From a virus, in the IMG/VR virus record IMGVR_UViG_3300017971_000201, positions 1 through 64,000 of that record: a stretch of DNA of 64,000 bases; one strand, written 5' to 3'. The position numbers were made by a program, and so were the translations under genes. Each line of letters opens with the position of its first letter. Position 1 is the first letter of the stretch. This document shows, piece by piece, positions 15,371-38,418 of the stretch. The notes under the pieces are model-generated. The model was not told where the DNA came from, did no database searches, and was given only the letters and a program-made list of their open reading frames with translations.

Positions 15371-15417
15371 CGTCCCTCCATTCGTGTATTCTGCCGCCCA
15401 CAAGGAGGAAACACCAG

Positions 15418-15837
15418 ATGGCAGAGCTTGAGTTGCCCCCAGGGGCGAAGGTCGAGGAGACGAAGCCCGCGCCGGCCGAGGAGAAGCAGGAGACGGACTG
15501 GACGGAGACGCCGTTCCCGATCGAGCTGTTCAGCAACAACATCGTGATCAAGCGCGACGACGTGGACGAGATGACCGAGGGCGGGATCATCCTCCCCGAG
15601 ACCGCGCGCCAGGGCCAGTACCGCACGATGGTCGGCACCGTGATCGCGGTCGGCCCGGGGTTCATGAAGGGCGACGGGTCGTGCATCCCGATGCGTGTCG
15701 CGGTCGGCGACCGGGTCGTCTTCCGCAAGTTCCAGGCGATGGTCGAGCTGACGGTCGACGGATTCGACTACCACCTCCTCGACGAGAACGGCCTGCTCGG
15801 CAAGGTTCGCGAGGGCGGCGTCACGAAGGTCCGCTGA
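15418..15837 (+). CDS. groES: Co-chaperonin GroES
   Basis: TEGGIILPE, GTVIAVGPG, VAVGDRVVF. Confidence 0.9.
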   Translation: MAELELPPGAKVEETKPAPAEEKQETDWTETPFPIELFSNNIVIKRDDVDEMTEGGIILPETARQGQYRTMVGTVIAVGPGFMKGDGSCIPMRVAVGDRVVFRKFQAMVELTVDGFDYHLLDENGLLGKVREGGVTKVR

Positions 15838-16721: not shown

Positions 16722-18395
16722 GTGGCGAACAAGGCCATCTTCCAGGGCGCGACCGCAGGTCGCTCCGTTCCCGCAACCGACACCGTGAACAATGCCGGAG
16801 GCCGGGCATACGAGTTCGGCCCGAAGCACGCGCTCGCACAGCTGGCGTGCACCGGCACCTTCAACGAGACCTTCTACGGCACTGCCGTCGACCAGCTCGA
16901 GGGCATCCGCAAGGCGGCCGACCAGGTCGAGCCCACCTTCCTCGCCAAGTGCGCGGTCTACGCGCGCCAGAAGGGCGGGATGAAGGACATGCCGGCGGCA
17001 CTCATCGTCATGCTGTCGAAGGCCGACCCGGCCCTGTGCTCGCTCGTCTTTCCCCTGGTCATCGACAACGGGAAGATGGTCCGCAACCTGGTCCAGATGG
17101 TCCGCTCCGGCGCGCTCGGCCGGAAGTCGATGGGGTCTGGCCTCAAGCGGCTCGTCAACAAGTGGATCCAGCAGCGGTCGGCGCGCGCGCTCTTCCGCGC
17201 GACTGTGGGGAAGAGCCCCAGCCTGGCCGATGTGATCCAGCTCACTCACCCGAAGGCGAAGGACGAGGAGCAGAAGGCCCTCATCGGCTACATCCTCGGC
17301 CGAGAGCACGACGCGTCCAAGCTGCCTGGCATCGTCCAGCACTACGAGGCGTTCAAGCGCGGCGAGTCGGACGAGGTCCCCGACGTGGACTTCCGGCAGC
17401 TCACCTCGCTGCCGCTCAAGCCGCATCACTGGGCGCAGATCGTCCGCAACGGCGGATACCAGTTCACCATCAAGAACCTCAACACGGCGGCGCGCCACGG
17501 CGTGTTCGACGCGCCTGGGCTGTCCGAGCTGATCGCGGCCCGGATCGCCAACCGTGAGGAGCTGGAGAAGGCCAGGATCTTCCCCTACCAGCTGCTCGTG
17601 GCCTATCTGAACGCGGGCAGGCACCCGGACCCGACCTACCAGCGGTACATGGCCTACTTCCGTCGCCACAATGAGACGGCACGCTCTGAGATCGACCTGC
17701 CCGACTCGGTCAGGGACTCTCTCCAGGACGCGATGGAGGCGGCGACCGAGAACGTCCCCAGCTTCGGCGTGCCCACGGCGGTGATCGTGGACGTCAGCGG
17801 CTCGATGCAGTCCCCGGTCACGGGCGAGCGGAAGGGCTCGACGACCAAGGTCCGATGCGTGGACGTGGCCGGCCTCATGGCAGCCACCGTGCTTCGCCGG
17901 AACAAGGGTTCGATCGTGATCCCCGTGGACGCCGACGTCCACAGCACGCGGATCGTCAACCCGCGCGACACGGTCGTGACGAACGCCATCAAGCTGTCCC
18001 AGATGGGTGGCGGCGGGACCAACCTCTCGCTGGCCCTTTCCCACCTGAACAAGCTGAAGAGGTCGCACGAGTTCAAGCTCGTGATCATCGTCAGCGACAA
18101 CGAGTCGTGGGTCGACTCTCGCGGGTGCGCGGGCTACTACGGCCGTGGAACCCGGCTCATGGATGAGTTCCGCCAGCTCCAGCAGAAGGCCGGCGGCGCG
18201 CGGATGGTCTGCATCGACATCACGCCGAACAGGAGCACCCAGGCGCCGAGCGCGCCGGACGAGATCATGAACATCGGTGGGTTCTCGGACTCGATCTGGA
18301 GTACCATCAACCGCTTCGCGGCCGGCGACACGCACGACGTGGACGCCTGGGTCGCAGAGATTGAGGCGATCAGCCTCGAGCAGCCGGAGGTGTAA
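16722..18395 (+). CDS. rsr: Ro60/TROVE-domain RNA-binding protein (Rsr)
   Basis: NNAGGRAY, LAQLACTGTFNETFY, ARIFPYQL, C-terminal VWA VDVSGSM...GGGTN...SDNESW...IGGFSD. Confidence 0.92.
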   Translation: MANKAIFQGATAGRSVPATDTVNNAGGRAYEFGPKHALAQLACTGTFNETFYGTAVDQLEGIRKAADQVEPTFLAKCAVYARQKGGMKDMPAALIVMLSKADPALCSLVFPLVIDNGKMVRNLVQMVRSGALGRKSMGSGLKRLVNKWIQQRSARALFRATVGKSPSLADVIQLTHPKAKDEEQKALIGYILGREHDASKLPGIVQHYEAFKRGESDEVPDVDFRQLTSLPLKPHHWAQIVRNGGYQFTIKNLNTAARHGVFDAPGLSELIAARIANREELEKARIFPYQLLVAYLNAGRHPDPTYQRYMAYFRRHNETARSEIDLPDSVRDSLQDAMEAATENVPSFGVPTAVIVDVSGSMQSPVTGERKGSTTKVRCVDVAGLMAATVLRRNKGSIVIPVDADVHSTRIVNPRDTVVTNAIKLSQMGGGGTNLSLALSHLNKLKRSHEFKLVIIVSDNESWVDSRGCAGYYGRGTRLMDEFRQLQQKAGGARMVCIDITPNRSTQAPSAPDEIMNIGGFSDSIWSTINRFAAGDTHDVDAWVAEIEAISLEQPEV

Positions 18396-19109: not shown

Positions 19110-19177
19110 GCCCCAGTCTGCGAGGCAGATCGCGATCTTGTACGTCGCGAGGCTCGGTGCGACTCCGAGCTGGGGCT
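19110..19177 (+). tRNA. Non-canonical tRNA-Thr(TGT)-like
   Basis: gccccag/ctggggc acceptor, minimal D arm, 7-bp anticodon stem with loop cttgtac. Confidence 0.6.
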
Positions 19178-19283
19178 TTTCTCAGAAACGATGACAGGTC
19201 TCCGGGCCTCAGTCGTAAGAGGGTCAGTCAAGACGAGGGCGCACCAACCGGCCTTGCTAGCCGGACCTGGGCGTCAACGCACA

Positions 19284-19296
19284 GCTGTTTGACAAC
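19284..19296 (+). promoter_or_regulatory. boxA-like antitermination site
   Basis: gctgtttgacaac just before the first canonical tRNA; repeated at 27312. Confidence 0.55.
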
Positions 19297-19307
19297 TCGC
19301 TGTCTTT

Positions 19308-19379
19308 GGGATCTTAGCTTAGGAAGTAGAGCGCCCGGCTGAAAACCGGAAGGCCCGAGTGCAACTCTCGGAGATCCCA
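19308..19379 (+). tRNA. tRNA-Phe(GAA)
   Basis: Cloverleaf; loop ctgaaaa. Confidence 0.9.
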
Positions 19380-19382
19380 TCT

Positions 19383-19457
19383 GGTCGCGTGGTGTAGCCA
19401 AGTCAACATGCCAGCCCGTCAAGCTGGAGATCGCGGGTGCGAATCCCGTCGCGACCG
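19383..19457 (+). tRNA. tRNA-Asp(GTC), C at position 33
   Basis: ccagc-ccgtcaa-gctgg. Confidence 0.85.
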
Positions 19458-19576
19458 TCATGGGAACCTGGCTGGTACCCAGAGGAGGAGCAGAGCGCTT
19501 CGCAAGAACAGGAGGTGACCTGGTGAGAGGTACGCTCACCGCAGAGGCGAATACCTAGGGTCGGAATCAACACCGA

Positions 19577-19648
19577 TCCTGGGATGCTCGATGGTCGAGT
19601 AGCCGCCTGTTAAGCGGAATGATGTGGGTTCGAGTCCCACCCCAGGAG
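19577..19648 (+). tRNA. tRNA-Asn(GTT)
   Basis: Loop ctgttaa; canonical TTC T loop. Confidence 0.85.
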
Positions 19649-19657
19649 TACAAACTC

Positions 19658-19695
19658 ACCGTCAGGTTCTCGGTGCGAATCCGAGGGGGTGAGCC
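19658..19695 (+). pseudogene. Orphan 3' half of a tRNA (Asn-like)
   Basis: accgtc-aggtt-ctcgg tgcgaat ccgag-ggggtga-g with no D arm upstream. Confidence 0.55.
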
Positions 19696-19697
19696 GC

Positions 19698-19769
19698 GCG
19701 TCGCAGGGAGATCAGTTCATCCGTCGGTCTGCAACACCGAAGAACCCGGTGCGACTCCGGGGCGGCGCT
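19698..19769 (+). tRNA. tRNA-Cys(GCA)
   Basis: tcggt-ctgcaac-accga; U73. Confidence 0.85.
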
Positions 19770-19772
19770 TCT

Positions 19773-19844
19773 AGGTCGCGCGCAAGGTACGCGGGCGGGT
19801 CTCCAAAACCTGCCGTCTGCTGGGTGCAAGTCCCAGGCGGCCTG
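19773..19844 (+). tRNA. tRNA-Trp(CCA)
   Basis: gcgggt-ctccaaa-acctgc; short D arm. Confidence 0.85.
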
Positions 19845-19846
19845 TC

Positions 19847-19914
19847 GTCCGAATGCCGTTCGAGTCTACATCTACCAACACGCTGTGACTCGGCAACAAC
19901 AACGTCGGACACCA
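19847..19914 (+). ncRNA. Short Y-RNA-like gene 1
   Basis: gtccgaatgcc...ctacatc...ggcaac...aacgtcggac-acca terminal stem. Confidence 0.7.
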
Positions 19915-19915
19915 T

Positions 19916-19988
19916 TGCCCCCTAGCTCAACTAGTAGAGTGCTTGGCTCTGAACCAAGAGGTTGTCGGTGCGAATCCGACGGGGGCTG
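19916..19988 (+). tRNA. tRNA-Gln(CTG)
   Basis: cttgg-ctctgaa-ccaag. Confidence 0.9.
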
Positions 19989-19992
19989 TCAT

Positions 19993-20068
19993 CGCGTGGT
20001 AGAGCAGTCAGGTTGTGCTCGCTGGGCTCATAACCCGGAGGTCGTAGGTTCGAATCCTACCCACGCTA
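19993..20068 (+). tRNA. tRNA-Met(CAT), initiator type
   Basis: 1:72 mismatch, GGG/CCC anticodon stem, loop ctcataa. Confidence 0.9.
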
Positions 20069-20072
20069 ACAA

Positions 20073-20146
20073 TGCGCGGTAGTCTAGTCAGGTACGACAC
20101 TGGGCTCATAACCCAGAGATTGCAGGTTCGAATCCTGTCCGCGCGA
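20073..20146 (+). tRNA. tRNA-Met(CAT), initiator type
   Basis: ctggg-ctcataa-cccag. Confidence 0.85.
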
Positions 20147-20151
20147 TCTGT

Positions 20152-20223
20152 TGCCCCCTAGCTCAAGAGTAGAGCGTCCGGCTTTGAACCGGAAGGTTGA
20201 GGGTGCGACTCCCTCGGGGGCTG
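20152..20223 (+). tRNA. tRNA-Gln(TTG)
   Basis: tccgg-ctttgaa-ccgga. Confidence 0.9.
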
Positions 20224-20275
20224 TCGGAACGCACGACCGGACGTTCCCTTTTCCCCTTTCGTCCCGTCGTGCTCT

Positions 20276-20346
20276 GGGGCATTGGTGAAACAGGATCACG
20301 CGGGCTTTGCAAGCCTGAATTGAGAGTGCGACTCTCTCATGCTCCA
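20276..20346 (+). tRNA. tRNA-Ala(TGC)
   Basis: G3:U70; loop tttgcaa. Confidence 0.9.
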
Positions 20347-20349
20347 TGC

Positions 20350-20420
20350 GGGCCATTCGTACAACAGCAGGACATCTCTCTTACAAGGAGAAGACGGGGG
20401 TGCGACTCCCTCATGGCCCA
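20350..20420 (+). tRNA. tRNA-Val(TAC)
   Basis: Loop cttacaa. Confidence 0.9.
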
Positions 20421-20429
20421 AAGGAACAC

Positions 20430-20501
20430 GCGGCCTTAGTTCCAGCAGCAGAACACCGGCTTGCCATGCCGGAGGCACGGGTGCAAATCCCGTAGGCCGC
20501 T
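20430..20501 (+). tRNA. tRNA-Gly(GCC)
   Basis: ccggc-ttgccat-gccgg. Confidence 0.9.
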
Positions 20502-20505
20502 TCAA

Positions 20506-20586
20506 CCGTCTGGGGTCCACCTAGTGGTGGTGCCGCGCTGTAAACGCGGTCCTTCGGGCAACGTGGTGCGAATCCACGCAGGCGGA
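20506..20586 (+). tRNA. tRNA-Tyr(GTA) with C1:G72
   Basis: ccgtctg/caggcgg acceptor; ccgcg-ctgtaaa-cgcgg; variable arm. Confidence 0.85.
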
Positions 20587-20651
20587 TCGGATCGCAAGCA
20601 GCACGGCAAGGTCCGGCTGGCCCGGTGAGCCCCACTGGGTATCCGGCGCAC

Positions 20652-20722
20652 GCGGCCTTGGCGTAGTAGTAACGCGTCAGCTTCCCAAGCTGACCGCACG
20701 GGTGCAACTCCCGTAGGCCGCT
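20652..20722 (+). tRNA. tRNA-Gly(CCC)
   Basis: tcagc-ttcccaa-gctga. Confidence 0.9.
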
Positions 20723-20726
20723 TCAA

Positions 20727-20801
20727 GCTCGGTTGGTGAAAGAGAATCACGCGAGGTTGTGGACCTCGAGTTCTACGGTGCGATTCCGAGACCGGGTACC
20801 A
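20727..20801 (+). tRNA. tRNA-His(GTG)
   Basis: cgagg-ttgtgga-cctcg; irregular T stem; encoded CCA. Confidence 0.8.
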
Positions 20802-20802
20802 A

Positions 20803-20874
20803 GCCCCCATGGCCTAACAGACAAGGCGCGTGGCTACGGACCATGAGATCCGGGTGCAACTCCTGGTGGGGGTA
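20803..20874 (+). tRNA. tRNA-Arg(ACG)
   Basis: cgtgg-ctacgga-ccatg. Confidence 0.9.
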
Positions 20875-20878
20875 TCGA

Positions 20879-20953
20879 CGGGCACGAGTCTCCAGATGAG
20901 CTGTCGCGCCTTATATGCGTAACGGCCGGGTGCAACTCCCGGGTGCCCTACCA
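20879..20953 (+). tRNA. tRNA with TAT anticodon (Ile-UAU-like)
   Basis: gggcac/gtgccc acceptor, gcgc-cttatat-gcgt, encoded CCA. Confidence 0.65.
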
Positions 20954-20984
20954 GCTCCGCTAGCCCAACAGCAGAGGCGCCGGT
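20954..20984 (+). pseudogene. 5' half of split short-arm tRNA-Leu
   Basis: gctccgc-ta-gcccaacagcagaggc-gccggt; D arm identical to tRNA-Leu(CAG) at 21771; acceptor pairs with gcggagc at 21681. Confidence 0.8.
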
Positions 20985-21012
20985 AGACAAAGCAGTAACG
21001 ACGCTGTAAAAC
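20984..21012 (+). promoter_or_regulatory. Sigma70-like promoter at left junction of HNH cassette
   Basis: TAGACA-17 nt-TAAAAC (preceded by TG), 6 nt before ATG. Confidence 0.5.
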
Positions 21013-21018
21013 AGAGGT

Positions 21019-21585
21019 ATGCGCAAAGAAATCTACCGTAGTCCCCCGCAGCAGATGCATGGTTATGTGGCCTACATCGTTCGCTACGACGACGGATTCA
21101 AGACCACGTTGTTCGAGCACCGGCTTGTGATGGAGCAACATCTAGGGAGGGCGCTACGGTCCGACGAAGTCGTTCATCACATAGATGGCGACAAGACAAA
21201 CAACGCGGCCGAGAACCTGGAACTTACTACTCCGTCGAAGCACGCGTCGAAGCACGCACGTCCGGCGCCGATAGTCGACCTGACCTGTCTGGTATGTGAG
21301 CGCTCGTTTGTCCGGCTAGCTCGGAAGGAACAGGAAAGGATCAGGCGTAGGAAGCGCGGCCCGTACTGCGGCAAGAAGTGCGCGGGGGTAGGTAGTCGCA
21401 AGCATCGTGGCAGGAAACGGGACAGCAAAGGCCGTATTCGATGTAGCGACTGCAAGCTCTTCCTACCAGAAGCAGAGTTTTGCAGGGAGCGCGGCAGGCC
21501 GGGTGGTCTGAGTTACAGGTGCAGATCCTGTAAGGCGGCCCAATTTCAATACAGGAAGAACAAGCAAGCCTCGGTGGCGGAATAG
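21019..21585 (+). CDS. HNH homing endonuclease with Zn fingers
   Basis: EHRLVMEQHLGRAL..EVVHHIDGDKTNNAAENLEL; CxxC pairs. Confidence 0.9.
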   Translation: MRKEIYRSPPQQMHGYVAYIVRYDDGFKTTLFEHRLVMEQHLGRALRSDEVVHHIDGDKTNNAAENLELTTPSKHASKHARPAPIVDLTCLVCERSFVRLARKEQERIRRRKRGPYCGKKCAGVGSRKHRGRKRDSKGRIRCSDCKLFLPEAEFCRERGRPGGLSYRCRSCKAAQFQYRKNKQASVAE

Positions 21586-21650
21586 CAGACGCGCTGGTCT
21601 CAAGAACCAGTGTCCGAAAGGACGTGTGGGTGCGAATCCCACCCGAGGCA
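21568..21650 (+). tRNA. tRNA-Leu(CAA), long variable arm, nested in split tRNA-Leu
   Basis: ctggt-ctcaaga-accag; overlaps the HNH stop codon. Confidence 0.9.
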
Positions 21651-21688
21651 AACACAGGAGGTTCCCAGTGCAAATCTGGGGCGGAGCA
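21651..21688 (+). pseudogene. 3' half of split tRNA-Leu
   Basis: acagg-aggtt-cccag tgcaaat ctggg-gcggagc-a. Confidence 0.8.
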
Positions 21689-21690
21689 AC

Positions 21691-21764
21691 GGTCCCGTAG
21701 CCCAATCAGCAGAGGTCCCGGCCTAAACCCAGGAACGGTCTCGGTGCAAATCCGAGGCGGAGCA
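21691..21764 (+). pseudogene. Chimeric/degenerate tRNA-Leu
   Basis: 5' ggtcccg does not pair with 3' gcggagc; D and T arms intact. Confidence 0.6.
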
Positions 21765-21770
21765 TCACAC

Positions 21771-21843
21771 GATCCTGTAGCCCAACAGCAGAGGCGCCGC
21801 ACTCAGGATGCGGAGGTTGTCGGTGCAAATCCGACCAGGATCA
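21771..21843 (+). tRNA. tRNA-Leu(CAG), short variable loop
   Basis: ccgca-ctcagga-tgcgg; 5-nt variable region. Confidence 0.9.
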
Positions 21844-21845
21844 TC

Positions 21846-21913
21846 GCTCGAATGCCGTCGTGGACTACATCCTGAACACATGACGTCTGCGGCAACACCA
21901 ACGTCGAGCACCA
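21846..21913 (+). ncRNA. Short Y-RNA-like gene 2
   Basis: gctcgaatgcc...gactacatc...ggcaac...aacgtcgagc-acca; co-varying stem relative to 19847. Confidence 0.7.
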
Positions 21914-21914
21914 C

Positions 21915-21997
21915 GCTGCCGTGGCGGAACAGCAGACGCGCCTGGTTGAGGGCCAGGTTCCCGAAAGGGAGTGGAGGTGCAACTCCTCTCGGCAGCA
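21915..21997 (+). tRNA. tRNA-Leu(GAG)
   Basis: cctgg-ttgaggg-ccagg; long variable arm. Confidence 0.9.
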
Positions 21998-22001
21998 TCT
22001 T

Positions 22002-22074
22002 GGGGTCGTGGCCAAGCAGTAAGGCGCCGCTCTGATAAGGCGGAGACTCGTGAGTGCAAATCTCACCGGCCCCA
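22002..22074 (+). tRNA. tRNA-Ile(GAT)
   Basis: ccgct-ctgataa-ggcgg. Confidence 0.9.
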
Positions 22075-22092
22075 TGCGACGATGAAGATCGA

Positions 22093-22656
22093 GTGAACGT
22101 CTCGCACAAGCATCGGTTCGTCTTCCTCGCGAACATGCGCACGGGCACGCGCTGCGTGTTCCACGCGCTTCGCCGCTACTTCGCTTGCATCGGCGGTAGC
22201 CACGATGCCAGGACGCTGACACACAAGATCGGCATCCCGGCCGGCTGCGAGCGCTACCTCGTGATCGCCACGGTGCGAAACCCGTTCAGCAGGATGGTCT
22301 CCTGCTGGAACTGGGTGCGCGAGGTTCCCGGCTGGCCGAGCGGGATCGACAAGTTCGTGCGAGCGAATCCGCACGACTTCGCCGGCTTCGTCGAGCGCGC
22401 GATGTCGACCGGCTTCGACTCCCAGTCGAGGCGCCTGGGCGAGATCGAGCCGGACCAGCTGATCCGCTACGAGCGGCTCCAGGCGAGCTTCAGCGAGCTG
22501 CCGTTCGTCACCGACGAGCAGCTCCACATCGTTCCGCAGAGCCCGATCACGGCCAACTGGCAGAGCTGGTACAGGCCGGAGATCGAGAAGATGGTGGCCG
22601 AGAAGTGGGCCGATGACTTCGATCGCTTCGGCTACCCGAAGGTCATTGGAAGGTGA
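22093..22656 (+). CDS. Sulfotransferase family 2 protein
   Basis: SHKHRFVFLANMRTGT, VRNPFSRMVS, IRYERL, WADDFDRFGY. Confidence 0.8.
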   Translation: MNVSHKHRFVFLANMRTGTRCVFHALRRYFACIGGSHDARTLTHKIGIPAGCERYLVIATVRNPFSRMVSCWNWVREVPGWPSGIDKFVRANPHDFAGFVERAMSTGFDSQSRRLGEIEPDQLIRYERLQASFSELPFVTDEQLHIVPQSPITANWQSWYRPEIEKMVAEKWADDFDRFGYPKVIGR

Positions 22657-22734
22657 ACCGGACAAGCGAACCGGAGCGGCCTGCTAAGTCGTCTGTCCCC
22701 TTCGGGGGATGTGGTGCAAGTCCACCTCCTTCCG
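22648..22734 (+). tRNA. tRNA-Ser(GCT), 8/4 fold
   Basis: cggc-ctgctaa-gtcg; ggaaggtg/ctccttcc acceptor; 4-bp T stem. Confidence 0.85.
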
Positions 22735-22887
22735 TTCGAGCAAGCACTGCCCTCTGTGGCCCGGTGCTCGTCGCGTCGAGCTGTTCGCTAGATCGGTCGT
22801 TCCCGGATGGTGCTGCTACGGCAGCGAGATCGGATCAATGATAGTTCCTCGTGGCGTCAGGAAGATCAGCTAAGAGAGGAGGAGGCT

Positions 22888-23463
22888 ATGGGCCTTCTAG
22901 TGGACGACCCTTGCCTCGTCCTCAACAGATCCTGGCAGGTAGTGGGGTTTCTCCCGATCGGGACCTGCATCGCCACTGTCATGCGCGATATGGCCTCGAT
23001 CATGTGCCCGACGTCGTACTTCCTCATGGACCTGGACGAGTGGATCGACAGAGCTGAGACTGACAGGTTCATCAAGACAGCCAGCACTCCGATCCCGGCG
23101 CCCGAGGTGATCGTACTGAAGAAGTACGGCGAGAGGCCCCCGCGCAAGGTGAGCTTCAACCGCCCGAACCTCTACAGACGGGACGAGCACACCTGCCAGT
23201 ACTGTGGCGAGGAACTCCCGCCCAAGAACCTCACGATCGATCACGTGCTACCGAGATCGAAGGGAGGTCCCACGACCTGGGAGAACACGGTGGCAGCCTG
23301 CCGCTCGTGCAACCAGAGGAAGGCCGACAAGACCACTGACGAGGCGCGTATGAAGCCTCGGAAGAAGCCCGCCGCCCCACGCTGGACACCTGGAGTCAGG
23401 ATCCCGCGAGGCGAGGTCAGGGCTAGCTGGGAGCCATTCCTGGCGAAGGAGCGGGTCGCCTAG
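22888..23463 (+). CDS. HNH endonuclease (McrA-like, tRNA-array associated)
   Basis: LVLNRSW, RDEHTCQYCG, TIDHVLPRSKGG, WENTVAACRSCNQRK; ggagg RBS. Confidence 0.9.
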   Translation: MGLLVDDPCLVLNRSWQVVGFLPIGTCIATVMRDMASIMCPTSYFLMDLDEWIDRAETDRFIKTASTPIPAPEVIVLKKYGERPPRKVSFNRPNLYRRDEHTCQYCGEELPPKNLTIDHVLPRSKGGPTTWENTVAACRSCNQRKADKTTDEARMKPRKKPAAPRWTPGVRIPRGEVRASWEPFLAKERVA

Positions 23464-23481
23464 GAGGCCCGTCTCCGCCCC

Positions 23482-23565
23482 GGAGCCGAGAACCTGGGGT
23501 AGTCCTGGGGCTCGCTTGGAAAGCGATGCGTTCTTCGGATTGGAGTGCGACTCTCCCCGGCTCCG
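23482..23565 (+). tRNA. tRNA-Ser(GGA)
   Basis: tcgc-ttggaaa-gcga; 4-bp T stem. Confidence 0.8.
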
Positions 23566-23573
23566 TGCTTGCT

Positions 23574-23783
23574 ATGATCGGCGCTGTGAAAAGCAAGATC
23601 GAAGTAGGCGAAACGGTACTTAGAGCGACGCTTGGATCCAGCGGTGATCTAGTTGTCGTCTCGGGTATCGAATCAGACAACGGCGTGGTCACCCGCTACC
23701 TGGTTAAGCCTGTAGCTCAACCAGACAGCGAGCCTGAACTAGTTCCTGCTGATCTGATTCACAGCCTACGCAAACGCCCCTGA
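23574..23783 (+). CDS. Small hypothetical protein
   Basis: Lower-GC ORF between tRNAs. Confidence 0.45.
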   Translation: MIGAVKSKIEVGETVLRATLGSSGDLVVVSGIESDNGVVTRYLVKPVAQPDSEPELVPADLIHSLRKRP

Positions 23784-23811
23784 AGCAGAAGCAGTGCTGC
23801 GCCTGCCTCGT
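23776..23811 (+). pseudogene. 5' half of split tRNA-Thr(CGT)
   Basis: gcccctg-aa-gcag..ctgc-g-cctgc-ct-cgt. Confidence 0.75.
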
Positions 23812-23892
23812 CGCTCTGGGTGGGCGCAGAGACGAGAATTGTCAGACGTCTTTATCGCACCATGTTCTGTGCTCAGGTAAAGCCCGGAACAA

Positions 23893-23963
23893 GCTCCTGT
23901 AGTTCAACAGCAGAATGCCTCTCTCGTAAGGAGGAGACGCGGGTGCAATTCCCGCCGGGAGCT
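23893..23963 (+). tRNA. tRNA-Thr(CGT), nested in split tRNA-Thr(CGT)
   Basis: cctct-ctcgtaa-ggagg. Confidence 0.9.
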
Positions 23964-23976
23964 TCAGCCTCAGATC

Positions 23977-24015
23977 CGTAAGCAGGAGAACCCGGTGCGA
24001 CTCCGGGCGGGAGTA
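23977..24015 (+). pseudogene. 3' half of split tRNA-Thr(CGT)
   Basis: cgt-aa-gcagg-agaa-cccgg tgcgact ccggg-cgggagt-a. Confidence 0.75.
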
Positions 24016-24019
24016 TCAA

Positions 24020-24091
24020 GCTCGCGTCGTCCAACAGATAGGATACGAGCCTCCGAAGCTCGAGATCTGGGTGCGACTCCCAGCGCGGGTA
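24020..24091 (+). tRNA. tRNA-Arg(CCG)
   Basis: cgagc-ctccgaa-gctcg. Confidence 0.9.
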
Positions 24092-24166
24092 TACAGGATG
24101 GACCCAGCTCCGGCTGGGGTAAATAGCGGCTGGCTGCACACCATCCTCATCAGTCAGTCGCGCCAA

Positions 24167-24240
24167 CAGGGCGTGGCGCAGTCTAGCAGCGCGTTGGTCT
24201 GGGGGACCAAAGGTCGTGGGTGCGAATCCCACCGCCCTGA
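24167..24240 (+). tRNA. tRNA-Pro(GGG)
   Basis: ttggt-ctggggg-accaa. Confidence 0.9.
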
Positions 24241-24267
24241 TCAGGAACGGGCAGACCCGTTCCGCTT

Positions 24268-24338
24268 GCCCTGATAGCTTAGTAGCAGAGCACTCGCTTG
24301 GTACGCGAGAGATCCCGGTGCGACTCCGGGTCAGGGCT
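24268..24338 (+). tRNA. tRNA-Thr(GGT)
   Basis: ctcgc-ttggtac-gcgag. Confidence 0.9.
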
Positions 24339-24343
24339 TAGAC

Positions 24344-24631
24344 ATGGCGAAGCTACGACGAGAGAAGCTGCCGGACGGAACCGACGCCGGCCTGCTGTCG
24401 TTCCAGTGTCCAGGCTGTGGCGCGCGCCACGCCTTCCGCATCATGTTCGACCCGGACCTGCCCGAAGAGCAGGTATGGTCGTGGAACGGCGACATGGACG
24501 GGCCGACGTTCGACCCAGCGCTGAAGGCCCCAGGCTGCCACCTCCGGTGCGTCGAGGGCAAGCTGCACTTCTTCGTCGACTCGGGGCACAAGCTCGCCGG
24601 CCGGCTCGTGGACCTGCCCGACGAGCTGTGA
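24344..24631 (+). CDS. DUF6527-like Zn-binding protein
   Basis: FQCPGCGARH, WSWNGDMDGPTFDP, CH, DSGHKLAG. Confidence 0.7.
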   Translation: MAKLRREKLPDGTDAGLLSFQCPGCGARHAFRIMFDPDLPEEQVWSWNGDMDGPTFDPALKAPGCHLRCVEGKLHFFVDSGHKLAGRLVDLPDEL

Positions 24632-24632
24632 C

Positions 24633-24818
24633 GTGGCCGATTGCGATCACGAGTGGGAGGAGATCCACCACTACGGCGAGGATCTCGAGGGCCGGCTGAT
24701 CCACTACTGCCCGACCGGCTTCAAGTGGTGCAGGCTCTGCCGCAGGGTCGAAGACGAAGACAACCCCCAGTGCCATCTCTGGGGCGAACCAGATCCGATA
24801 CAACCCGCAGACACGTAG
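24633..24818 (+). CDS. Small Cys/His protein
   Basis: CDHEW...WCRLC. Confidence 0.45.
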   Translation: MADCDHEWEEIHHYGEDLEGRLIHYCPTGFKWCRLCRRVEDEDNPQCHLWGEPDPIQPADT

Positions 24819-24872
24819 AGTGGGCTCGCTCTCATAAGGCGATGCAAGACGGTGCAAGCCCGTCCTGCGGGA
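24804..24872 (+). tRNA. tRNA-Met/Ile2(CAT), elongator type with reduced D arm
   Basis: cccgcag/ctgcggg; tcgct-ctcataa-ggcga. Confidence 0.7.
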
Positions 24873-24876
24873 TCAT

Positions 24877-24913
24877 GGAACGTGAACCGGACAAGCGTGC
24901 CGGGCCGGTCTCG
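24877..24913 (+). pseudogene. 5' half of split tRNA-Ser(CGA)
   Basis: ggaacgtg-aa-ccggacaagcgtgccgg-gc-cggt-ct-cg; near-identical to the 5' end of Ser(GCT) at 22648. Confidence 0.85.
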
Positions 24914-24944
24914 CGCTACGATCCCGTCAATTACGGGGTGCATC

Positions 24945-25559
24945 ATGCCGGGCAAACGGCGACCGGACCTGAGAGAACGGGCCATCAACCTGCGGTGCAA
25001 GCAGAAGCTCGGCAGGAACGAGATTGCGCGTTGCCTTGGAGGGCTGGTGAGCCCTGTAACTGTTGGCCGGTGGTTGCGGAACCACCCGCTCCGTAAGAAC
25101 GAGGAGCGGCGGGTTCGCGAGACTGCCATCAAGAAAAGGCGCCCACGGCAACCGAAGCAGCCGAGAGTTCACTGCGAGGTCTGCGGAAAGAAGTGCAGTC
25201 GCGGGGCGAAGCGTTTTTGCTCTGATTGCGCGGTCGGACGAGTACGAAGTCCCAGACGAGAACCGACACAGCGTTACCTCGTCGAAGACAGGCTGGTCAA
25301 CTCGACGCGCCTCAAGACAAGACTCATCGAGGAGGGTTATCTAGAGGATCGTTGCGGCAAGTGCGGTTCGTTGCCGGAGTGGAACGGTGAGCCGCTCAAC
25401 CTCCAGCTGGATCACATCGACGGAAACCGTAGGAACAATCTTCTCAGCAACCTTCGGATTGTTTGTCCCAATTGCCACTCGCAGACGCCGACCTACGCTG
25501 CCAGGAATCGCAGGAATCCGAAGAGGTCGAGAAGGAAGCCGCGTTACGCGCACGAATGA
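24945..25559 (+). CDS. HNH homing endonuclease with N-terminal HTH
   Basis: CGKCG..EWNGEPLNLQLDHIDGNRRNNLLSNLRIVCPNCHSQT. Confidence 0.9.
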   Translation: MPGKRRPDLRERAINLRCKQKLGRNEIARCLGGLVSPVTVGRWLRNHPLRKNEERRVRETAIKKRRPRQPKQPRVHCEVCGKKCSRGAKRFCSDCAVGRVRSPRREPTQRYLVEDRLVNSTRLKTRLIEEGYLEDRCGKCGSLPEWNGEPLNLQLDHIDGNRRNNLLSNLRIVCPNCHSQTPTYAARNRRNPKRSRRKPRYAHE

Positions 25560-25563
25560 AATT

Positions 25564-25653
25564 GGAGAGCGTCCGGCTAGACGAGGAGCACGTCTCGAAA
25601 ACGTGTAGGGCGTACGTAAGTGCGTCTTCAGGGTGCGAGTCCCTGGCTCTCCG
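25564..25653 (+). tRNA. tRNA-Ser(CGA), canonical 7/5 fold, nested
   Basis: cacgt-ctcgaaa-acgtg; ggagagc/gctctcc. Confidence 0.9.
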
Positions 25654-25667
25654 TAGGAGCGGGAAGA

Positions 25668-25715
25668 CGAAAACCGTGCGTCCTTCGGGTTGGGGTGCAA
25701 CTCCTCCGCGTTCCG
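25668..25715 (+). pseudogene. 3' half of split tRNA-Ser(CGA)
   Basis: cga-aa-accg-variable arm-gggg tgcaact cctc-cgcgttcc-g. Confidence 0.85.
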
Positions 25716-25718
25716 TCA

Positions 25719-25791
25719 CAGGGTGTAGCTTAGGAGCAAAAGCGCCGCGTTCGGGACGCGGAGAGCGTGGGTGCGAGTCCCACCACCCTGA
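25719..25791 (+). tRNA. tRNA-Pro(CGG)
   Basis: ccgcg-ttcggga-cgcgg. Confidence 0.9.
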
Positions 25792-25815
25792 TCAACCATG
25801 AGGTAGAACATCTGC

Positions 25816-26262
25816 ATGAACGAACCCGAATGGTGCGCTCTCTGCGCGGACGCTCCGGCCGTCGGCCGGCTCTTTCCAGTGGTCTACCTCACGCAGGATG
25901 AGGTGAAGTCGGAGCGCCCGCTGCCGAGACACGAGACTCGCTGCTGCGCGCGGTGCGGGAACCAGGCGTCCGACAGCTTCGTTGACGAGAACTTCGAGAC
26001 CGGCCGGATGGCTGTACTCCAGTTCGAGCACGACGACTTCGCGAAGGTCTCCGAGAAGCGGATCCTCGAGCTGGTCGGTCAGCTCGAGAACGCGCAGTGC
26101 TCGCTGTGCGGTAAGAAGATGGAGAACGACCCGGATGCCATGCCGGCGCGTCCGCTGGCCGAGAAGCTGCTCCGGGAGCATCCGAACATGAAGTACGTGA
26201 CAGCAGTGTGCGCCGACTGCGCGCCGAGCTGCCCGTGCTGCGACGAAGAAGAGAACAACTAG
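25816..26262 (+). CDS. Multi-CxxC Zn-finger protein
   Basis: Four CxxC pairs plus CPCC. Confidence 0.65.
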   Translation: MNEPEWCALCADAPAVGRLFPVVYLTQDEVKSERPLPRHETRCCARCGNQASDSFVDENFETGRMAVLQFEHDDFAKVSEKRILELVGQLENAQCSLCGKKMENDPDAMPARPLAEKLLREHPNMKYVTAVCADCAPSCPCCDEEENN

Positions 26263-26333
26263 GGGCAGTAGCTCAATAGGAGAGCGCCTCGTTCGCAACG
26301 AGGAGGTTGTCGGTGCGACTCCGATCTGCTCCA
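26262..26333 (+). tRNA. tRNA-Ala(CGC)
   Basis: cctcg-ttcgcaa-cgagg. Confidence 0.9.
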
Positions 26334-26334
26334 T

Positions 26335-26422
26335 GAAGGCGTGACGAATCAGCGTCGTGGCTCGCGAGTGCGTTACGGAACTTGGGATCGTCGGGCTCCG
26401 GGTGCAACTCCCGGCGTCTTCA
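26335..26422 (+). ncRNA. tRNA-like RNA without a canonical anticodon arm
   Basis: gaaggcg/cgtcttc acceptor, D hairpin gacg/cgtc, T arm ccggg-tgcaact-cccgg. Confidence 0.55.
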
Positions 26423-26426
26423 TCAA

Positions 26427-26499
26427 GGGGCCTTAGCTCAGTTAGGAGAGCGCCGATCTGGCAGGTCGGAGGTCACGAGTGCGAATCTCGTAGGCTCCA
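26427..26499 (+). tRNA. tRNA-Ala(GGC)
   Basis: ccgat-ctggcag-gtcgg. Confidence 0.9.
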
Positions 26500-26500
26500 T

Positions 26501-26583
26501 GGAAGGTGATCTCGGCCAGCTGCCGAGCGCGGTTTTGAAAACCGATGGAGCTTCGGCTTGGGGTGCAACTCCTCCGCCTTCCG
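26501..26583 (+). tRNA. tRNA-Ser(TGA), 8/4 fold
   Basis: cggt-tttgaaa-accg; ggaaggtg/cgccttcc. Confidence 0.85.
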
Positions 26584-26584
26584 T

Positions 26585-26668
26585 GGGCTTCTACCGGAGA
26601 CCCAGTTCATGAGCGTGGTGGCCGGGCTCGCTAGCAGGGCGGGGTTCGATTCCCTCTGGAGGCTCCCA
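26585..26668 (+). ncRNA. tRNA-like element (T arm plus terminal stem)
   Basis: gggcttcta/tggaggctc stem, gggg-ttcgatt-ccct, ends cca. Confidence 0.4.
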
Positions 26669-26670
26669 AA

Positions 26671-26744
26671 GGGCGCGTAGCTCAGTTAGTCAGAGTGCCT
26701 CGGTGACATCGAGGAAGTCCTGGGTGCGAATCCCAGCGTGCCCA
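26671..26744 (+). tRNA. tRNA-Val(GAC)
   Basis: cctcg-gtgacat-cgagg. Confidence 0.9.
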
Positions 26745-26832
26745 TCGCAACTCGCGCGAGCGAGTCTGTGATGGTGGAGTGCGTCCGGTCTTCCGGTCGC
26801 CCCCGGCCGAGCCCCTCCCGGCTCGGCCACCT

Positions 26833-26903
26833 GGCCCCACGGTCTAGTAGCAAGATGCGAGTCTTTCACGCTCGAGAGGAGGGTGCGATTCCCTCTGGGG
26901 TCA
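26833..26903 (+). tRNA. tRNA-Glu(TTC)
   Basis: cgagt-ctttcac-gctcg. Confidence 0.9.
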
Positions 26904-26964
26904 TCGGCGATCCGCGCGACCGGCGGATGTAAGCGAGGCCACGCGCGGCCCCGCCCCAGCTCAC

Positions 26965-27035
26965 GCGGACGTACGTCAACAGCAGACTGTCGGGCTTCCA
27001 ACCCGTCGATGCCGGTGCAAATCCGGTCGTCCGCT
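26965..27035 (+). tRNA. tRNA-Gly(TCC)
   Basis: cggg-cttccaa-cccg. Confidence 0.85.
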
Positions 27036-27039
27036 TCCT

Positions 27040-27109
27040 GCCCCCGGCAGAGAGGCAGCCGGCTCTTCTAAAGCTGGCCTTCCCGGTGCGACTCCGGGCG
27101 GGGGTACCA
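27040..27109 (+). tRNA. Non-canonical tRNA-Arg(TCT)-like
   Basis: gcccccg/cgggggt, no clear D stem, 7-bp stem gccggct-cttctaa-agctggc, encoded CCA. Confidence 0.65.
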
Positions 27110-27110
27110 C

Positions 27111-27182
27111 GGGTCTGTGGTGTAACAGGAGCACACTCGGCTTTTACCCGAGGCGGTCAGGGTGCGAATCCCTGCGGACCCA
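27111..27182 (+). tRNA. tRNA-Lys(TTT)
   Basis: ctcgg-cttttac-ccgag. Confidence 0.9.
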
Positions 27183-27340: not shown

Positions 27341-27689
27341 GGGGCTGACATGGCATCGACCGGGTCAGTGAATCTCGTGCTGCGTGTAGAGGTCCCCGGT
27401 TGGCCTCTCTAAACAACCGGGAAACTGAACAATTGCCAACGCACCTGTTCGCCTGGCAGCCTAAAAAGGCCGCCCCCAGCTGGATCCCCCGCCCATGGGG
27501 TGAAAGATCTGGGCCATAAGATGGGCTGGTCCCGCGCTGGAGTCTCAGCGGCAACGGACGAGAAACTACTGCGACGCCCCACGACCAGCATCCTGCTCTC
27601 GGTCTGGTCGCGGGTAAGCTCGAGAGCTACGCACGTAGACGCACGAAGGGATCGACTACGGGACCGGGGTTCGATTCCCCGCAGCTCCA
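27341..27689 (+). ncRNA. ssrA: tmRNA
   Basis: 5' ggggctga..gg.atcgac; tag ORF 27435-27464 = ANAPVRLAA*; 3' gaccggggttcgattccccgcagctcca. Confidence 0.95.
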
Positions 27690-28379: not shown

Positions 28380-28453
28380 CGCGCGGTGGGCTAATCCGGT
28401 ACGCCGCCGGGCTCATAACCCGGAGACTGGGGGTTCGAATCCCTCCCGCGCTA
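28380..28453 (+). tRNA. tRNA-Met(CAT), initiator type
   Basis: ccggg-ctcataa-cccgg; 1:72 mismatch. Confidence 0.85.
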
Positions 28454-28715: not shown

Positions 28716-28721
28716 GAACAA

Positions 28722-28876
28722 CCCACGAATGCCTTGGGAGACTACATCCTGCAAGCCGGTGTCCGAATGGACGTGCGGGTTCGAGTCCCGCCCGGCCGCC
28801 TCGACGGCCGGTGGCGGAATGGTAGACGCGCCGGAGGTGGAGACACCATGAAGTCCCCCGCCCCTTACGTCGTGGG
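28722..28876 (+). ncRNA. yrlA: YrlA-type Y RNA (permuted tRNA mimic)
   Basis: cccacgaatgcc..gactacatc; then variable arm, T arm gcggg-ttcgagt-cccgc, loop-closed acceptor ccggccg/cggccgg, D arm tggcggaatggtagacgc; 3' acgtcgtggg closes the terminal stem. Confidence 0.85.
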
Positions 28877-29929: not shown

Positions 29930-30004
29930 GGACGCGTGGCCCAACGGCAGGAGGCTAACCACTTAAAATGGTTGAAGTTGTGGGTTCGACTCCCACCGCG
30001 TCCA
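29930..30004 (+). tRNA. tRNA-Leu(TAA), short variable region
   Basis: aacca-cttaaaa-tggtt; canonical GG/TTC elbow. Confidence 0.85.
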
Positions 30005-31907: not shown

Positions 31908-32101
31908 ATCGTCTCCTGCGGGACCAACTCGGCGAGCTTCGCGGTCGCCGCCTCGCCTACCTCGCGAGCATCGCTCCTGAGCCAGTGCTCGTCCTGTCCT
32001 GTGGTGTGACAGTCGGCTGCGCCCTCGCGCCACGCGCTGTACAACTCCTCGATGAGGTGCTTCACCAGAGCCACAAGTTGCCTCTCGCGCTCGGCGGTCA
32101 C
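31904..32101 (-). CDS. Hypothetical protein
   Basis: Coupled ORF. Confidence 0.45.
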   Translation of the reverse strand: MTAERERQLVALVKHLIEELYSAWREGAADCHTTGQDEHWLRSDAREVGEAATAKLAELVPQETM

Positions 32102-38376: not shown

Positions 38377-38418
38377 GCTGTTTCCGTCCGATCCGCCGGT
38401 CATATACCATCCGCGTCT

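Follow-up and report, generated by a model that had tools for sequence, protein, structure and literature searches.

The contact between G18 of the D-loop and pseudouridine-55 of the T-loop is taught as an invariant of transfer RNA (tRNA), and U55 is the target of TruB. To our knowledge, a U (as pseudouridine) at the second T-loop position together with an intercalating G18 is regarded as universal in tRNA. Here we describe a phage tRNA array in which most genes carry a different pair, A18 with G55. The array lies in the first 64 kb (64,000 nucleotides, hereafter the window) of a single viral contig of 159,664 bp and 65% GC, IMG/VR record IMGVR_UViG_3300017971_000201. Its G55 genes are probably functional tRNAs with an alternative elbow. 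In canonical tRNA, G18 intercalates between residues 57 and 58 and bonds with pseudouridine-55, and the G19-C56 pair caps the elbow (PMC4810234).

The closest described structural counterpart is found outside tRNA. The T-loops of the flavin mononucleotide (FMN) and cobalamin riboswitches follow the consensus YGNRA, mostly UGNAA, and the intercalating nucleotide donated to them is strongly preferred to be adenosine (bioRxiv 10.1101/2022.12.26.521914). The array T-loops share this plan. U54-G55-C56-R57-A58 with A18 amounts, at the sequence level, to UGNRA plus a partner adenine, with G at position 2 facing the donated intercalating base. Unlike the riboswitch T-loops, the motif here sits within tRNA, and we infer the geometric equivalence from sequence. 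Natural tRNAs that lack both G18 and U55 have been described as well, namely the staphylococcal non-proteinogenic tRNA-Gly species of cell-wall synthesis, which have U18U19 or C18U19 and are without G19, U55 and C56 (PMC4574755). However, in those the contacts are lost and only Gly is concerned, whereas the array tRNAs retain G19-C56 and exchange the 18:55 pair across 19 identities.

Phages, plasmids and genomic islands that carry large sets of tRNA genes are also known, for example the Mycobacterium "tRNA array units" (PMC5966550, PMC12803027), as are phages with Ro60 and Y RNAs. The window array is like those of cluster C mycobacteriophages, Streptomyces phages and Myxococcus phage Mx1 in having dozens of dense tRNA genes for most or all amino acids, interspersed HNH genes and an accompanying transfer-messenger RNA (tmRNA) and Ro60-like gene. 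With about 40 tRNA genes per 8 kb it is a mobile array unit as that class is defined (20 or more closely packed tRNA genes on a mobile genome). It is unlike the cultured Ro60-phage arrays checked in its elbows. Within about 20 kb of the Ro60 gene, canonical tRNAs number 36/37 in Mx1, 34/34 in Daubenski and 23/23 in TunaTartare, compared with 38 of 45 genes having G55 here. Because 94 of the 95 tRNAs near Ro60 in these three cultured phages are canonical at 18/55, A18/G55 is no general trait of Ro60-linked phage arrays. The Mx1 exception is a tRNA-Met(CAU) at 15347-15423 of the Mx1 locus, with D-loop TTAGACA and T-loop TGCGATT (A18/G55). Phage tRNAs that evade defences differ from host tRNAs at the positions read by nucleases, so that translation continues (PMC10264068, PMC11555353, PMC11464382). 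Those are single tRNAs changed in the anticodon loop or stem, whereas in the window the elbow is changed across the whole array. We found no description of A18 with G55 in tRNA in the searchable literature, whose scope leaves out most subscription journals, and "undescribed" is provisional to that extent; two reviews of the tRNA elbow and T-loop do not mention the pair.

Genes were called with ARAGORN, Rfam and our own scan for T-arm, acceptor and anticodon stems. ARAGORN reports 35 tRNAs and the tmRNA in the window; Rfam confirms most of them and adds two. Because many further GG-TGCRA-nn-CC T-arm hairpins were visible, cloverleaves were rebuilt outward from the T-arm, using a 7-bp acceptor stem, a 5-bp anticodon stem and a D-arm as criteria. 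The total is 45 tRNA or tRNA-like genes between 10840 and 30004. Thirty-eight have G55 (T-loop T-G-C-R-A-n-n), 36 of these 38 inside 19110-27182, and all 38 keep T54, C56 and A58. Scores of 38.6-64.8 bits with Rfam RF00005 (gathering score 29) are reached by 26 G55 genes, and five ARAGORN-called and seven self-called ones fall below the Rfam reporting limit. ARAGORN and Rfam together overlook 7 of the 38, and an eighth, tRNA-Ser(UGA) at 26501, has only a sub-threshold match to the Rfam tRNA-Sec model. The G55 genes are given below by position, strand and support. "All four" stands for ARAGORN, Rfam, cloverleaf and the positional rule for residue 18 that is set out after the list, and "relative" stands for the 275-kb phage discussed further on.

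19110-19177 (+): tRNA-Thr(UGU), G55, short atypical D-arm; ARAGORN, cloverleaf; partly conserved in relative
19308-19379 (+): tRNA-Phe(GAA), A18/G55; all four
19383-19457 (+): tRNA-Asp(GUC), A18/G55; all four
19698-19769 (+): tRNA-Cys(GCA), A18/G55, U73; ARAGORN, cloverleaf, positional rule; missed by Rfam
19773-19844 (+): tRNA-Trp(CCA), G55, short D-arm; ARAGORN, cloverleaf; 96% identity in relative
19916-19988 (+): tRNA-Gln(CUG), A18/G55; all four
20152-20223 (+): tRNA-Gln(UUG), A18/G55; all four
20276-20346 (+): tRNA-Ala(UGC), G3:U70, A18/G55; all four
20350-20420 (+): tRNA-Val(UAC), A18/G55; Rfam 51 bits, cloverleaf; missed by ARAGORN
20430-20501 (+): tRNA-Gly(GCC), A18/G55; all four
20506-20586 (+): tRNA-Tyr(GUA), G55, D-loop with TAG and TGG, A18 by the offset rule; ARAGORN, cloverleaf
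20652-20722 (+): tRNA-Gly(CCC), A18/G55; all four
20727-20798 (+): tRNA-His(GUG), A18/G55, CCA encoded; ARAGORN, Rfam, cloverleaf
20803-20874 (+): tRNA-Arg(ACG), A18/G55; all four
20879-20950 (+): tRNA-Ile(UAU)-like, G55, CCA encoded, position 18 outside the rule; own call, cloverleaf
21568-21650 (+): tRNA-Leu(CAA), long variable arm, A18/G55; ARAGORN, Rfam, cloverleaf
21692-21764 (+): Leu(UAA)-like element with G55 and a poorly paired acceptor stem, perhaps a pseudogene; cloverleaf rebuild
21771-21843 (+): tRNA-Leu(CAG), short variable arm (73 nucleotides), A18/G55; ARAGORN, Rfam, cloverleaf
21915-21997 (+): tRNA-Leu(GAG), A18/G55; ARAGORN, Rfam, cloverleaf
22002-22074 (+): tRNA-Ile(GAU), A18/G55; all four
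22648-22734 (+): tRNA-Ser(GCU)-like, G55; own call; 5' half conserved in relative
23482-23565 (+): tRNA-Ser(GGA)-like, G55; own call, cloverleaf
23893-23963 (+): tRNA-Thr(CGU), A18/G55; all four
24020-24091 (+): tRNA-Arg(CCG), A18/G55; all four
24167-24240 (+): tRNA-Pro(GGG), C1:G72, A18/G55; all four
24268-24338 (+): tRNA-Thr(GGU), A18/G55; all four
24804-24872 (+): elongator Met or Ile2 (CAU) tRNA-like, G55; own call; 87% identity over full length in relative
25564-25653 (+): tRNA-Ser(CGA), A18/G55; ARAGORN, cloverleaf
25719-25791 (+): tRNA-Pro(CGG), A18/G55; all four
26262-26333 (+): tRNA-Ala(CGC), G3:U70, A18/G55; all four
26335-26422 (+): 88-nucleotide G55 tRNA-like element, acceptor pairing 7/7, no clear anticodon; cloverleaf rebuild
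26427-26499 (+): tRNA-Ala(GGC), A18 G19 G20 with G55; all four
26501-26583 (+): tRNA-Ser(UGA), G55; Rfam tRNA-Sec model 36.8 bits, cloverleaf; 84% identity in relative
26671-26744 (+): tRNA-Val(GAC), A18/G55; all four
26833-26903 (+): tRNA-Glu(UUC), A18/G55; all four
26965-27035 (+): tRNA-Gly(UCC), A18/G55; all four
27040-27106 (+): tRNA-Arg(UCU)-like, reduced D-arm, G55, CCA encoded; own call; 88.6% identity in relative
27111-27182 (+): tRNA-Lys(UUU), A18/G55; all four

Position 18 was assigned by reference to about 700 U55 tRNAs from unrelated contigs, in which the first G of GG is D-loop residue 4-6 and 2-4 loop nucleotides remain after the dinucleotide. The positional rule accordingly takes a dinucleotide that begins at or after D-loop position 4 with 2-4 nucleotides after it. 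In independent sequences, the AG of G55 tRNAs that lack GG occupies the same loop offsets as the GG of U55 tRNAs. By this rule A18-G19 is present in 31 of the 38 G55 genes and G18-G19 in none; the other seven have atypical (short or long) D-arms that fall outside the rule. GG is present in all six clear U55 genes, listed next, two of them scored as G18-G19 by eye. The window association between 18 and 55 gives a Fisher p of 8.5e-5 under the strict rule, which mis-scores the long D-loop of tRNA-Leu(UAA). With that gene read by eye the table becomes 31:0 against 0:6, for an estimated p of about 4e-7. A looser test, GG anywhere in the D-loop, was dropped in favour of the positional rule. Applied to the window by itself it discriminates poorly (p = 0.03), since GG can be found at 15-16 and at 19-20 too.

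10840-10912 (+): isolated tRNA-Tyr(GUA), canonical elbow; ARAGORN, Rfam, cloverleaf
19577-19648 (+): tRNA-Asn(GUU), canonical G18G19/U55; ARAGORN, Rfam, cloverleaf
19993-20068 (+): initiator-like tRNA-Met (1:72 mismatch, GGG/CCC anticodon stem), canonical elbow; ARAGORN, Rfam, cloverleaf
20073-20146 (+): initiator-like tRNA-Met, canonical elbow; ARAGORN, Rfam, cloverleaf
28380-28453 (+): initiator-like tRNA-Met, canonical elbow; ARAGORN, Rfam, cloverleaf
29930-30004 (+): tRNA-Leu(UAA), short variable arm, canonical elbow; ARAGORN, Rfam, cloverleaf

In all three initiator-like Met genes the 1:72 pair is a mismatch or a wobble, and the anticodon stem contains three G:C pairs. An earlier note, made from the letters of the window, had described the T-loop TGC(G/A)A in almost all array tRNAs, mostly with AG in place of GG, and the counts bear this out (38/45 with G55, 31 with A18). 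It had proposed tabulating positions 18, 19 and 55, and the tabulation finds 18 and 55 correlated in the window and, as described below, in viral contigs and in genomes. The exceptions it named (Asn, three initiator-like Met, Leu-UAA and an RNA resembling bacterial YrlA) do keep GG and U55, as do the Tyr gene at 10840 and the tmRNA in their canonical elbows. Three of them map a little beyond the range 19110-27182 that the note gives, namely the third initiator-like Met, Leu-UAA and the YrlA-like RNA.

From their sequences, the G55 genes look like working tRNAs. Their roughly 35 anticodons together serve 19 amino acids, Asn being the one absent, and their identity elements match those anticodons: G3:U70 in the three Ala tRNAs; C1:G72 and A73 in both Pro tRNAs; U73 in Cys and Gly; G73 in Gln, Asp, Trp and Ser; and A73 in Leu and Tyr. 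The remaining elbow pairs, U54-A58 and G19-C56, are kept, all 38 T-loops reading T-G-C-R-A and 31 D-loops having AG at 18/19, and no G55 gene has the G18:U55 contact. Nor is a single T-arm copied throughout. At least 25 different T-arm sequences occur among more than 30 G55 genes, one 17-nucleotide arm occurring four times. Just 3 of the 45 genes end in an encoded CCA (His 20727-20801, the Ile-UAU-like gene 20879-20953 and the Arg-UCU-like gene 27040-27109). The other 42 must therefore depend on a CCA-adding enzyme.

Further evidence comes from a relative found by pattern search of viral contigs, where a fragment is 80% identical to part of the array. It is a complete 275-kb phage with terminal repeats, and its tRNA order is the same as in the window array. 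G55 is present in 32 of its 35 genes, the exceptions being Leu-UAA and Met genes, and both of its Asn genes have G55. ARAGORN calls no Ser tRNA in it. When same-anticodon tRNAs of the two phages are compared, 469 stem pairs are unchanged, 101 differ in both bases with pairing kept and 29 differ in one base but can still pair. Pairing is lost in just 26, of which 10 come from two non-orthologous comparisons. Because stem changes are mostly compensatory, the cloverleaves are under purifying selection. A18/G55 has been retained through roughly 20-25% sequence divergence. Full-length conservation extends to three genes that the standard finders miss, Met-CAU 24804, Ser-UGA 26501 and Arg-UCU 27040. 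The identity elements, the 19-amino-acid set and the orthologous array with its 101 compensatory changes together argue that the G55 genes are functional tRNAs. As a separate observation, tRNA-Leu(CAG) at 21771-21843 is 100% identical in the two phages, compared with 60-95% for the other tRNAs. Short-arm Leu tRNAs also occur in arrays of Mx1, Streptomyces phages and Verrucomicrobia.

The pair is not confined to these two phages. A survey pattern that combined a common D-stem with a G55 T-arm and left the D-loop free matched at least 119 viral and at least 120 bacterial or archaeal contigs, and covariation was counted over all tRNAs on the loci among the matches listed. On the viral loci the ratio of A18 to G18 is 131:2 with G55 and 3:436 with U55 (Fisher p 1.8e-123). 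On the genome loci it is 208:5 with G55 and 1:181 with U55 (p 3.8e-106). Among the same matches, several arrays in metagenome-assembled genomes (MAGs) of Verrucomicrobiaceae/Prosthecobacter are G55 in 8/8 to 14/15 tRNAs, and these share D-loops with the window, CAACAGCAGA for Leu and AACAGACA for Arg. MAGs of Kofleriaceae and Gemmatimonadaceae have mixed arrays. Single chromosomal tRNAs with the pair occur as well. At least 28 Pelagibacterales genomes have an A18/G55 tRNA-Phe(GAA), and others are Met and Arg(CCU) tRNAs in the Candidate Phyla Radiation (CPR), Ile in Endomicrobium and Ala or Thr in DPANN archaea.

The Pelagibacter case is informative. In one complete genome 28 of 30 distinct tRNAs are canonical and the sole tRNA-Phe is A18/G55, with D-loop AGGAGTA and T-loop TGCGAAT. 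Its tRNA-Val(GAC), with AATAGTA and AGCGTAA, is A18/G55 with a swapped A54-U58. Because the sole tRNA-Phe has the pair, A18/G55 must work in ordinary translation without any phage factor. The coordinated alternative 18:55 tertiary pair that the earlier note suggested, in otherwise intact tRNAs, is well supported: the two positions co-vary strictly in the window as in hundreds of tRNAs elsewhere, identity elements are preserved and the stems show 101 compensatory changes. The reasons that the note proposed, freedom from modification or evasion of nucleases that recognise the elbow, are plausible candidates and are weighed below. Its expectation that similar arrays may exist in bacteria is also borne out, by the Verrucomicrobiaceae, Kofleriaceae and Gemmatimonadaceae MAGs and by the single SAR11, CPR and DPANN tRNAs. 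Its statement that initiators stay canonical holds here and in the 275-kb relative. However, in a few other arrays G55 is found in Met tRNAs whose anticodon stem has three G:C pairs, which rules the statement out as a general rule.

How might such an elbow be built? Outside tRNA, where UGNRA is the usual T-loop consensus, the loop turns at the G of position 2 and a partner adenine intercalates between positions 4 and 5. If the array tRNAs follow this plan, A18 would substitute for G18 and G55 for U55 or pseudouridine-55, leaving the reverse-Hoogsteen U54-A58 layer and the outer G19-C56 layer unchanged. A18:G55 would then be a compensated switch from a "tRNA type" to a "riboswitch type" of T-loop docking, and the phage would possess a nearly complete elongator set, for 19 amino acids, with a differently built inner elbow layer. 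By analogy with the riboswitches we infer a compensated swap to an RNA geometry already known to be stable. In the yeast suppressor tRNA SUP4, single changes at G18 or U55 abolish function (PMC4117946), which fits the need for a double change. Because the bases are G55 and A18, TruB cannot make pseudouridine-55 and TrmH cannot make Gm18. Factors that recognise U55 would meet a different base at the site that they read or cut. The outer face, on which RNase P, the ribosome and T-boxes stack, is unchanged.

The surroundings of the array bear on what it might be for. The contig encodes a tail sheath, baseplate wedge, tape measure, T4 gp23-like major head protein, portal and tail fibres (Pfam and PHROG scans), and the presence of the sheath, baseplate, gp23-like capsid and portal genes makes this a T4-like myovirus. 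Its major capsid protein has at most about 32% identity to any GenBank phage. The array has no close or useful DNA match by megablast among GenBank phages and plasmids, and the phage tmRNA has no DNA match in five array-carrying genomes (two Kofleriaceae, two Verrucomicrobiaceae including one Prosthecobacter, and one Gemmatimonadaceae). Scans of about 80 larger predicted open reading frames (ORFs), half of which are without a match, yield Ro60, HNH and LAGLIDADG endonucleases, inteins, nucleotide kinases, a NUDIX protein, a radical SAM protein, an ADP-ribosylglycohydrolase and a metallophosphoesterase. Neighbouring protein and RNA features are as follows.

16722-18395 (+): Ro60-like protein (TROVE and vWA), directly 5' of the array; Pfam TROVE 2.4e-10, vWA_Ro60 2e-9
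19649-19697 (+): 49-nucleotide minihelix-like element (acceptor-like stem and G55 T-arm only); partly conserved in relative
19847-19914 (+): Y-RNA-like hairpin Y1, 3' end CACCA; paralogue of Y2
21019-21585 (+): HNH endonuclease ORF within the array; Pfam HNH_3 8.6e-13
21844-21914 (+): Y-RNA-like hairpin Y2, 3' end CACCA; 95% identity in relative
22807-23463 (+): HNH endonuclease ORF within the array; Pfam HNH_5 1.8e-17
24852-25559 (+): HNH-like ORF within the array; Pfam HNH_3 3e-5
26587-26664 (+): odd U55 T-arm element, not a clear tRNA; cloverleaf rebuild
27341-27689 (+): tmRNA (tag ANAPVRLAA), canonical U55 T-loop at 27665; Rfam 126 bits, ARAGORN
28720-28870 (+): YrlA-like RNA, canonical GG/UUC, T-loop at 28775; fold, weak Rfam YrlA match

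The Ro60-like protein is nearest to the Ro-like protein of Myxococcus phage Mx1 (42.9% identity). As in bacterial Ro60/YrlA loci (RF02553), Y-like RNAs come after the Ro60 gene, and one combines a T-arm, a closed acceptor hairpin and a D-arm. This YrlA-like RNA has a long stem enclosing those three elements and the D-loop GAATGGTAGA. Its layout fits and it is 91% conserved in the 275-kb relative. However, unlike bacterial YrlA it scores far below the Rfam threshold (22.4 bits against a gathering score of 69). Its canonical elbow contrasts with the surrounding array tRNAs.

Several partial or unusual elements deserve mention. Partial tRNA-like pieces consisting of a G55 T-arm and a 3' acceptor strand lie between full genes at 19649-19697, 23966-24019 and 25654-25718. 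One tRNA gene appears to be split. Its 5' part (20955-20990, acceptor strand GCTCCGC, D-arm with CAACAGCAG) precedes the HNH ORF at 21019-21585, and its 3' part (21655-21690, G55 T-arm and GCGGAGC) follows tRNA-Leu(CAA). Because the 3' strand of the anticodon stem is missing, this looks like disruption by homing endonuclease insertion and not like an intron. Elsewhere in the window, inteins with LAGLIDADG or Hint homing-endonuclease domains split a DnaB-like helicase and a deoxynucleoside kinase at 2936-5704 (-) and 36598-38403 (-). The ADP-ribosylglycohydrolase ORF (Pfam 6.8e-64) is at 44711-45841 (-), the radical SAM ORF at 31083-32144 (-) and a calcineurin-like phosphoesterase ORF at 43302-44132 (-); a similar phosphoesterase lies within the Mx1 tRNA array. 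Outside the window, ARAGORN reports a 97-nucleotide tRNA-Arg(UCG)-like element at 126478-126574 of the full contig, distant from the array.

Not everything sits comfortably with functional A18:G55 tRNAs as the explanation, or with an adaptive role for them, and the following points weigh against it. Seven G55 genes fall outside the positional rule for residue 18 because of their atypical D-arms. The element at 21692 at least looks pseudogene-like, and the array holds gene fragments. Across arrays, best identities to G55 and to U55 tRNAs of the same anticodon are alike. A G55 tRNA thus resembles its G55 counterparts in other arrays no more than it resembles U55 tRNAs, and neither a single origin nor convergence can be claimed. 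Three further points concern the adaptive part. Within one and the same cell, canonical elbows persist in the initiators, in Asn and Leu-UAA, in the tmRNA and in the YrlA-like RNA, which is awkward for a nuclease that would act on every U55 T-loop. Ro60 is also found beside fully canonical arrays. Finally, Pfam and PHROG scans of the roughly 80 larger predicted ORFs reveal no tRNA nuclease, pseudouridine synthase, CCA enzyme or RNA ligase.

Why, then, would a whole array carry the alternative elbow? The share of G55 tends to be either near-complete or rare, at 38/45 here and 32/35 in the relative, compared with 1 in 20-38 in many other contigs. Because of this distribution, and because the G55 set is an almost complete decoding set, selection on the set as a whole is suggested, either for independence from modification and chaperoning or for insensitivity to an inactivator that reads the T-loop. 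We regard such selection as a serious candidate, if a little short of an even chance.

Perhaps no selection is needed. A18/G55 might be an equivalent, neutral solution fixed by drift, partial gene conversion or descent. The pair works in housekeeping tRNAs beside canonical ones, the recurring T-arms (the 17-nucleotide arm found four times) are compatible with some conversion, and no associated enzyme was found among the roughly 80 larger ORFs scanned. However, both changes are shared by over 30 genes that differ in identity and span at least 25 T-arm sequences, and this state was kept over roughly 20-25% divergence while the stems turned over. Each switch would also require a double change if the loss seen in yeast single mutants applies here, and the frequency of G55 among arrays is bimodal. 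A neutral origin is possible on this evidence but somewhat unlikely.

If the set was selected, one benefit might be folding that does not depend on modification. The A18/G55 elbow would be stable without pseudouridine-55 or chaperoning by TruB, which would be useful in a rapid burst when dozens of tRNAs are made within minutes and modification capacity is limiting. On chemical grounds G55 cannot be a TruB substrate, the UGNRA T-loops of riboswitches fold unmodified, and the variant is present in the genome-reduced SAR11, CPR and DPANN. Yet most large phage arrays are canonical, including those of the Ro60-linked Mx1 and Streptomyces phages, and the canonical initiators are left unexplained. 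The benefit may in any case be small, as truB is dispensable in Escherichia coli. We therefore think this benefit unlikely to be the driving one, although it deserves to be kept in view.

Another suggested benefit is stealth. The A18/G55 tRNAs would escape a host or element factor that inactivates tRNAs by way of U54-U55 or G18, and the phage would then need a resistant tRNA for nearly every amino acid. Such a need would fit the near-complete-or-rare frequency of G55 (38/45, 32/35 and 8/8 to 14/15, compared with 1 in 20-38) and the coverage of 19 amino acids, with Asn also G55 in the 275-kb relative. There are precedents for both sides of such a conflict. The CdiA-CT E479 toxin cuts the T-loop between the conserved T and pseudouridine (PMC9086364), and phage tRNAs evade anticodon nucleases through sequence changes, as in the studies cited above. 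However, no such nuclease is among the roughly 80 larger phage ORFs scanned, and the U55-bearing initiators, Leu-UAA, Asn, tmRNA and YrlA-like RNA would all be hit. The outer G19-C56 face on which most elbow readers stack is unchanged, and the same pair occurs in single SAR11 and CPR housekeeping tRNAs without any context of conflict. Stealth is thus quite doubtful. An extended version, in which the tRNA pool is invisible to a T-loop factor and the canonical YrlA-like RNA near Ro60 serves as a decoy, is decidedly improbable. If it were true, it would add an elbow-level layer to the conflict between phage and host over tRNA and account for arrays switching together.

That the genes are decaying or non-translational (pseudogenes, decoys or Ro60 ligands) is very improbable. 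It is true that there are fragments and a minihelix (19649, 21655 and 23966), a poor acceptor stem at 21692 and several odd D-arms, and that the array adjoins Ro60 and Y-like RNAs. Against this stand the intact identity elements and anticodon loops, the almost complete set of anticodons, the 101 compensatory changes relative to the 275-kb phage and the sole Pelagibacter tRNA-Phe, which has the same pair. Least credible of all is a constraint at the DNA level, in which avoidance of restriction sites (TCGA, TTCGAA) drove U55 to G55 with A18 compensating: although TTCGAA is observed 24 times in the genome against 47 expected, both strands counted, six canonical tRNAs and the tmRNA retain TTCGA, TTCAA would abolish the site with position 55 untouched, the same pair occurs in unrelated cells and phages of differing GC content, and the driver is rejected because TCGA itself is not avoided (observed/expected 1.06).

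Functional tRNAs with an A18:G55 elbow thus remain the probable explanation. On this explanation, A18-G55 would be a second, strictly co-varying solution to the tRNA elbow, used by whole phage tRNA sets under purifying selection. SAR11, among the most abundant of bacteria, has the same pair in its sole tRNA-Phe. On the practical side, standard finders such as ARAGORN and Rfam miss some G55 tRNA genes. More broadly, the G55 tRNAs would offer a natural system for asking what pseudouridine-55 and TruB are for, how tolerant the readers of the elbow are (RNase P, the CCA enzyme, ribosomal L1/L5, T-boxes and IF3) and whether phages use the elbow, beyond the anticodon loop, against host factors.

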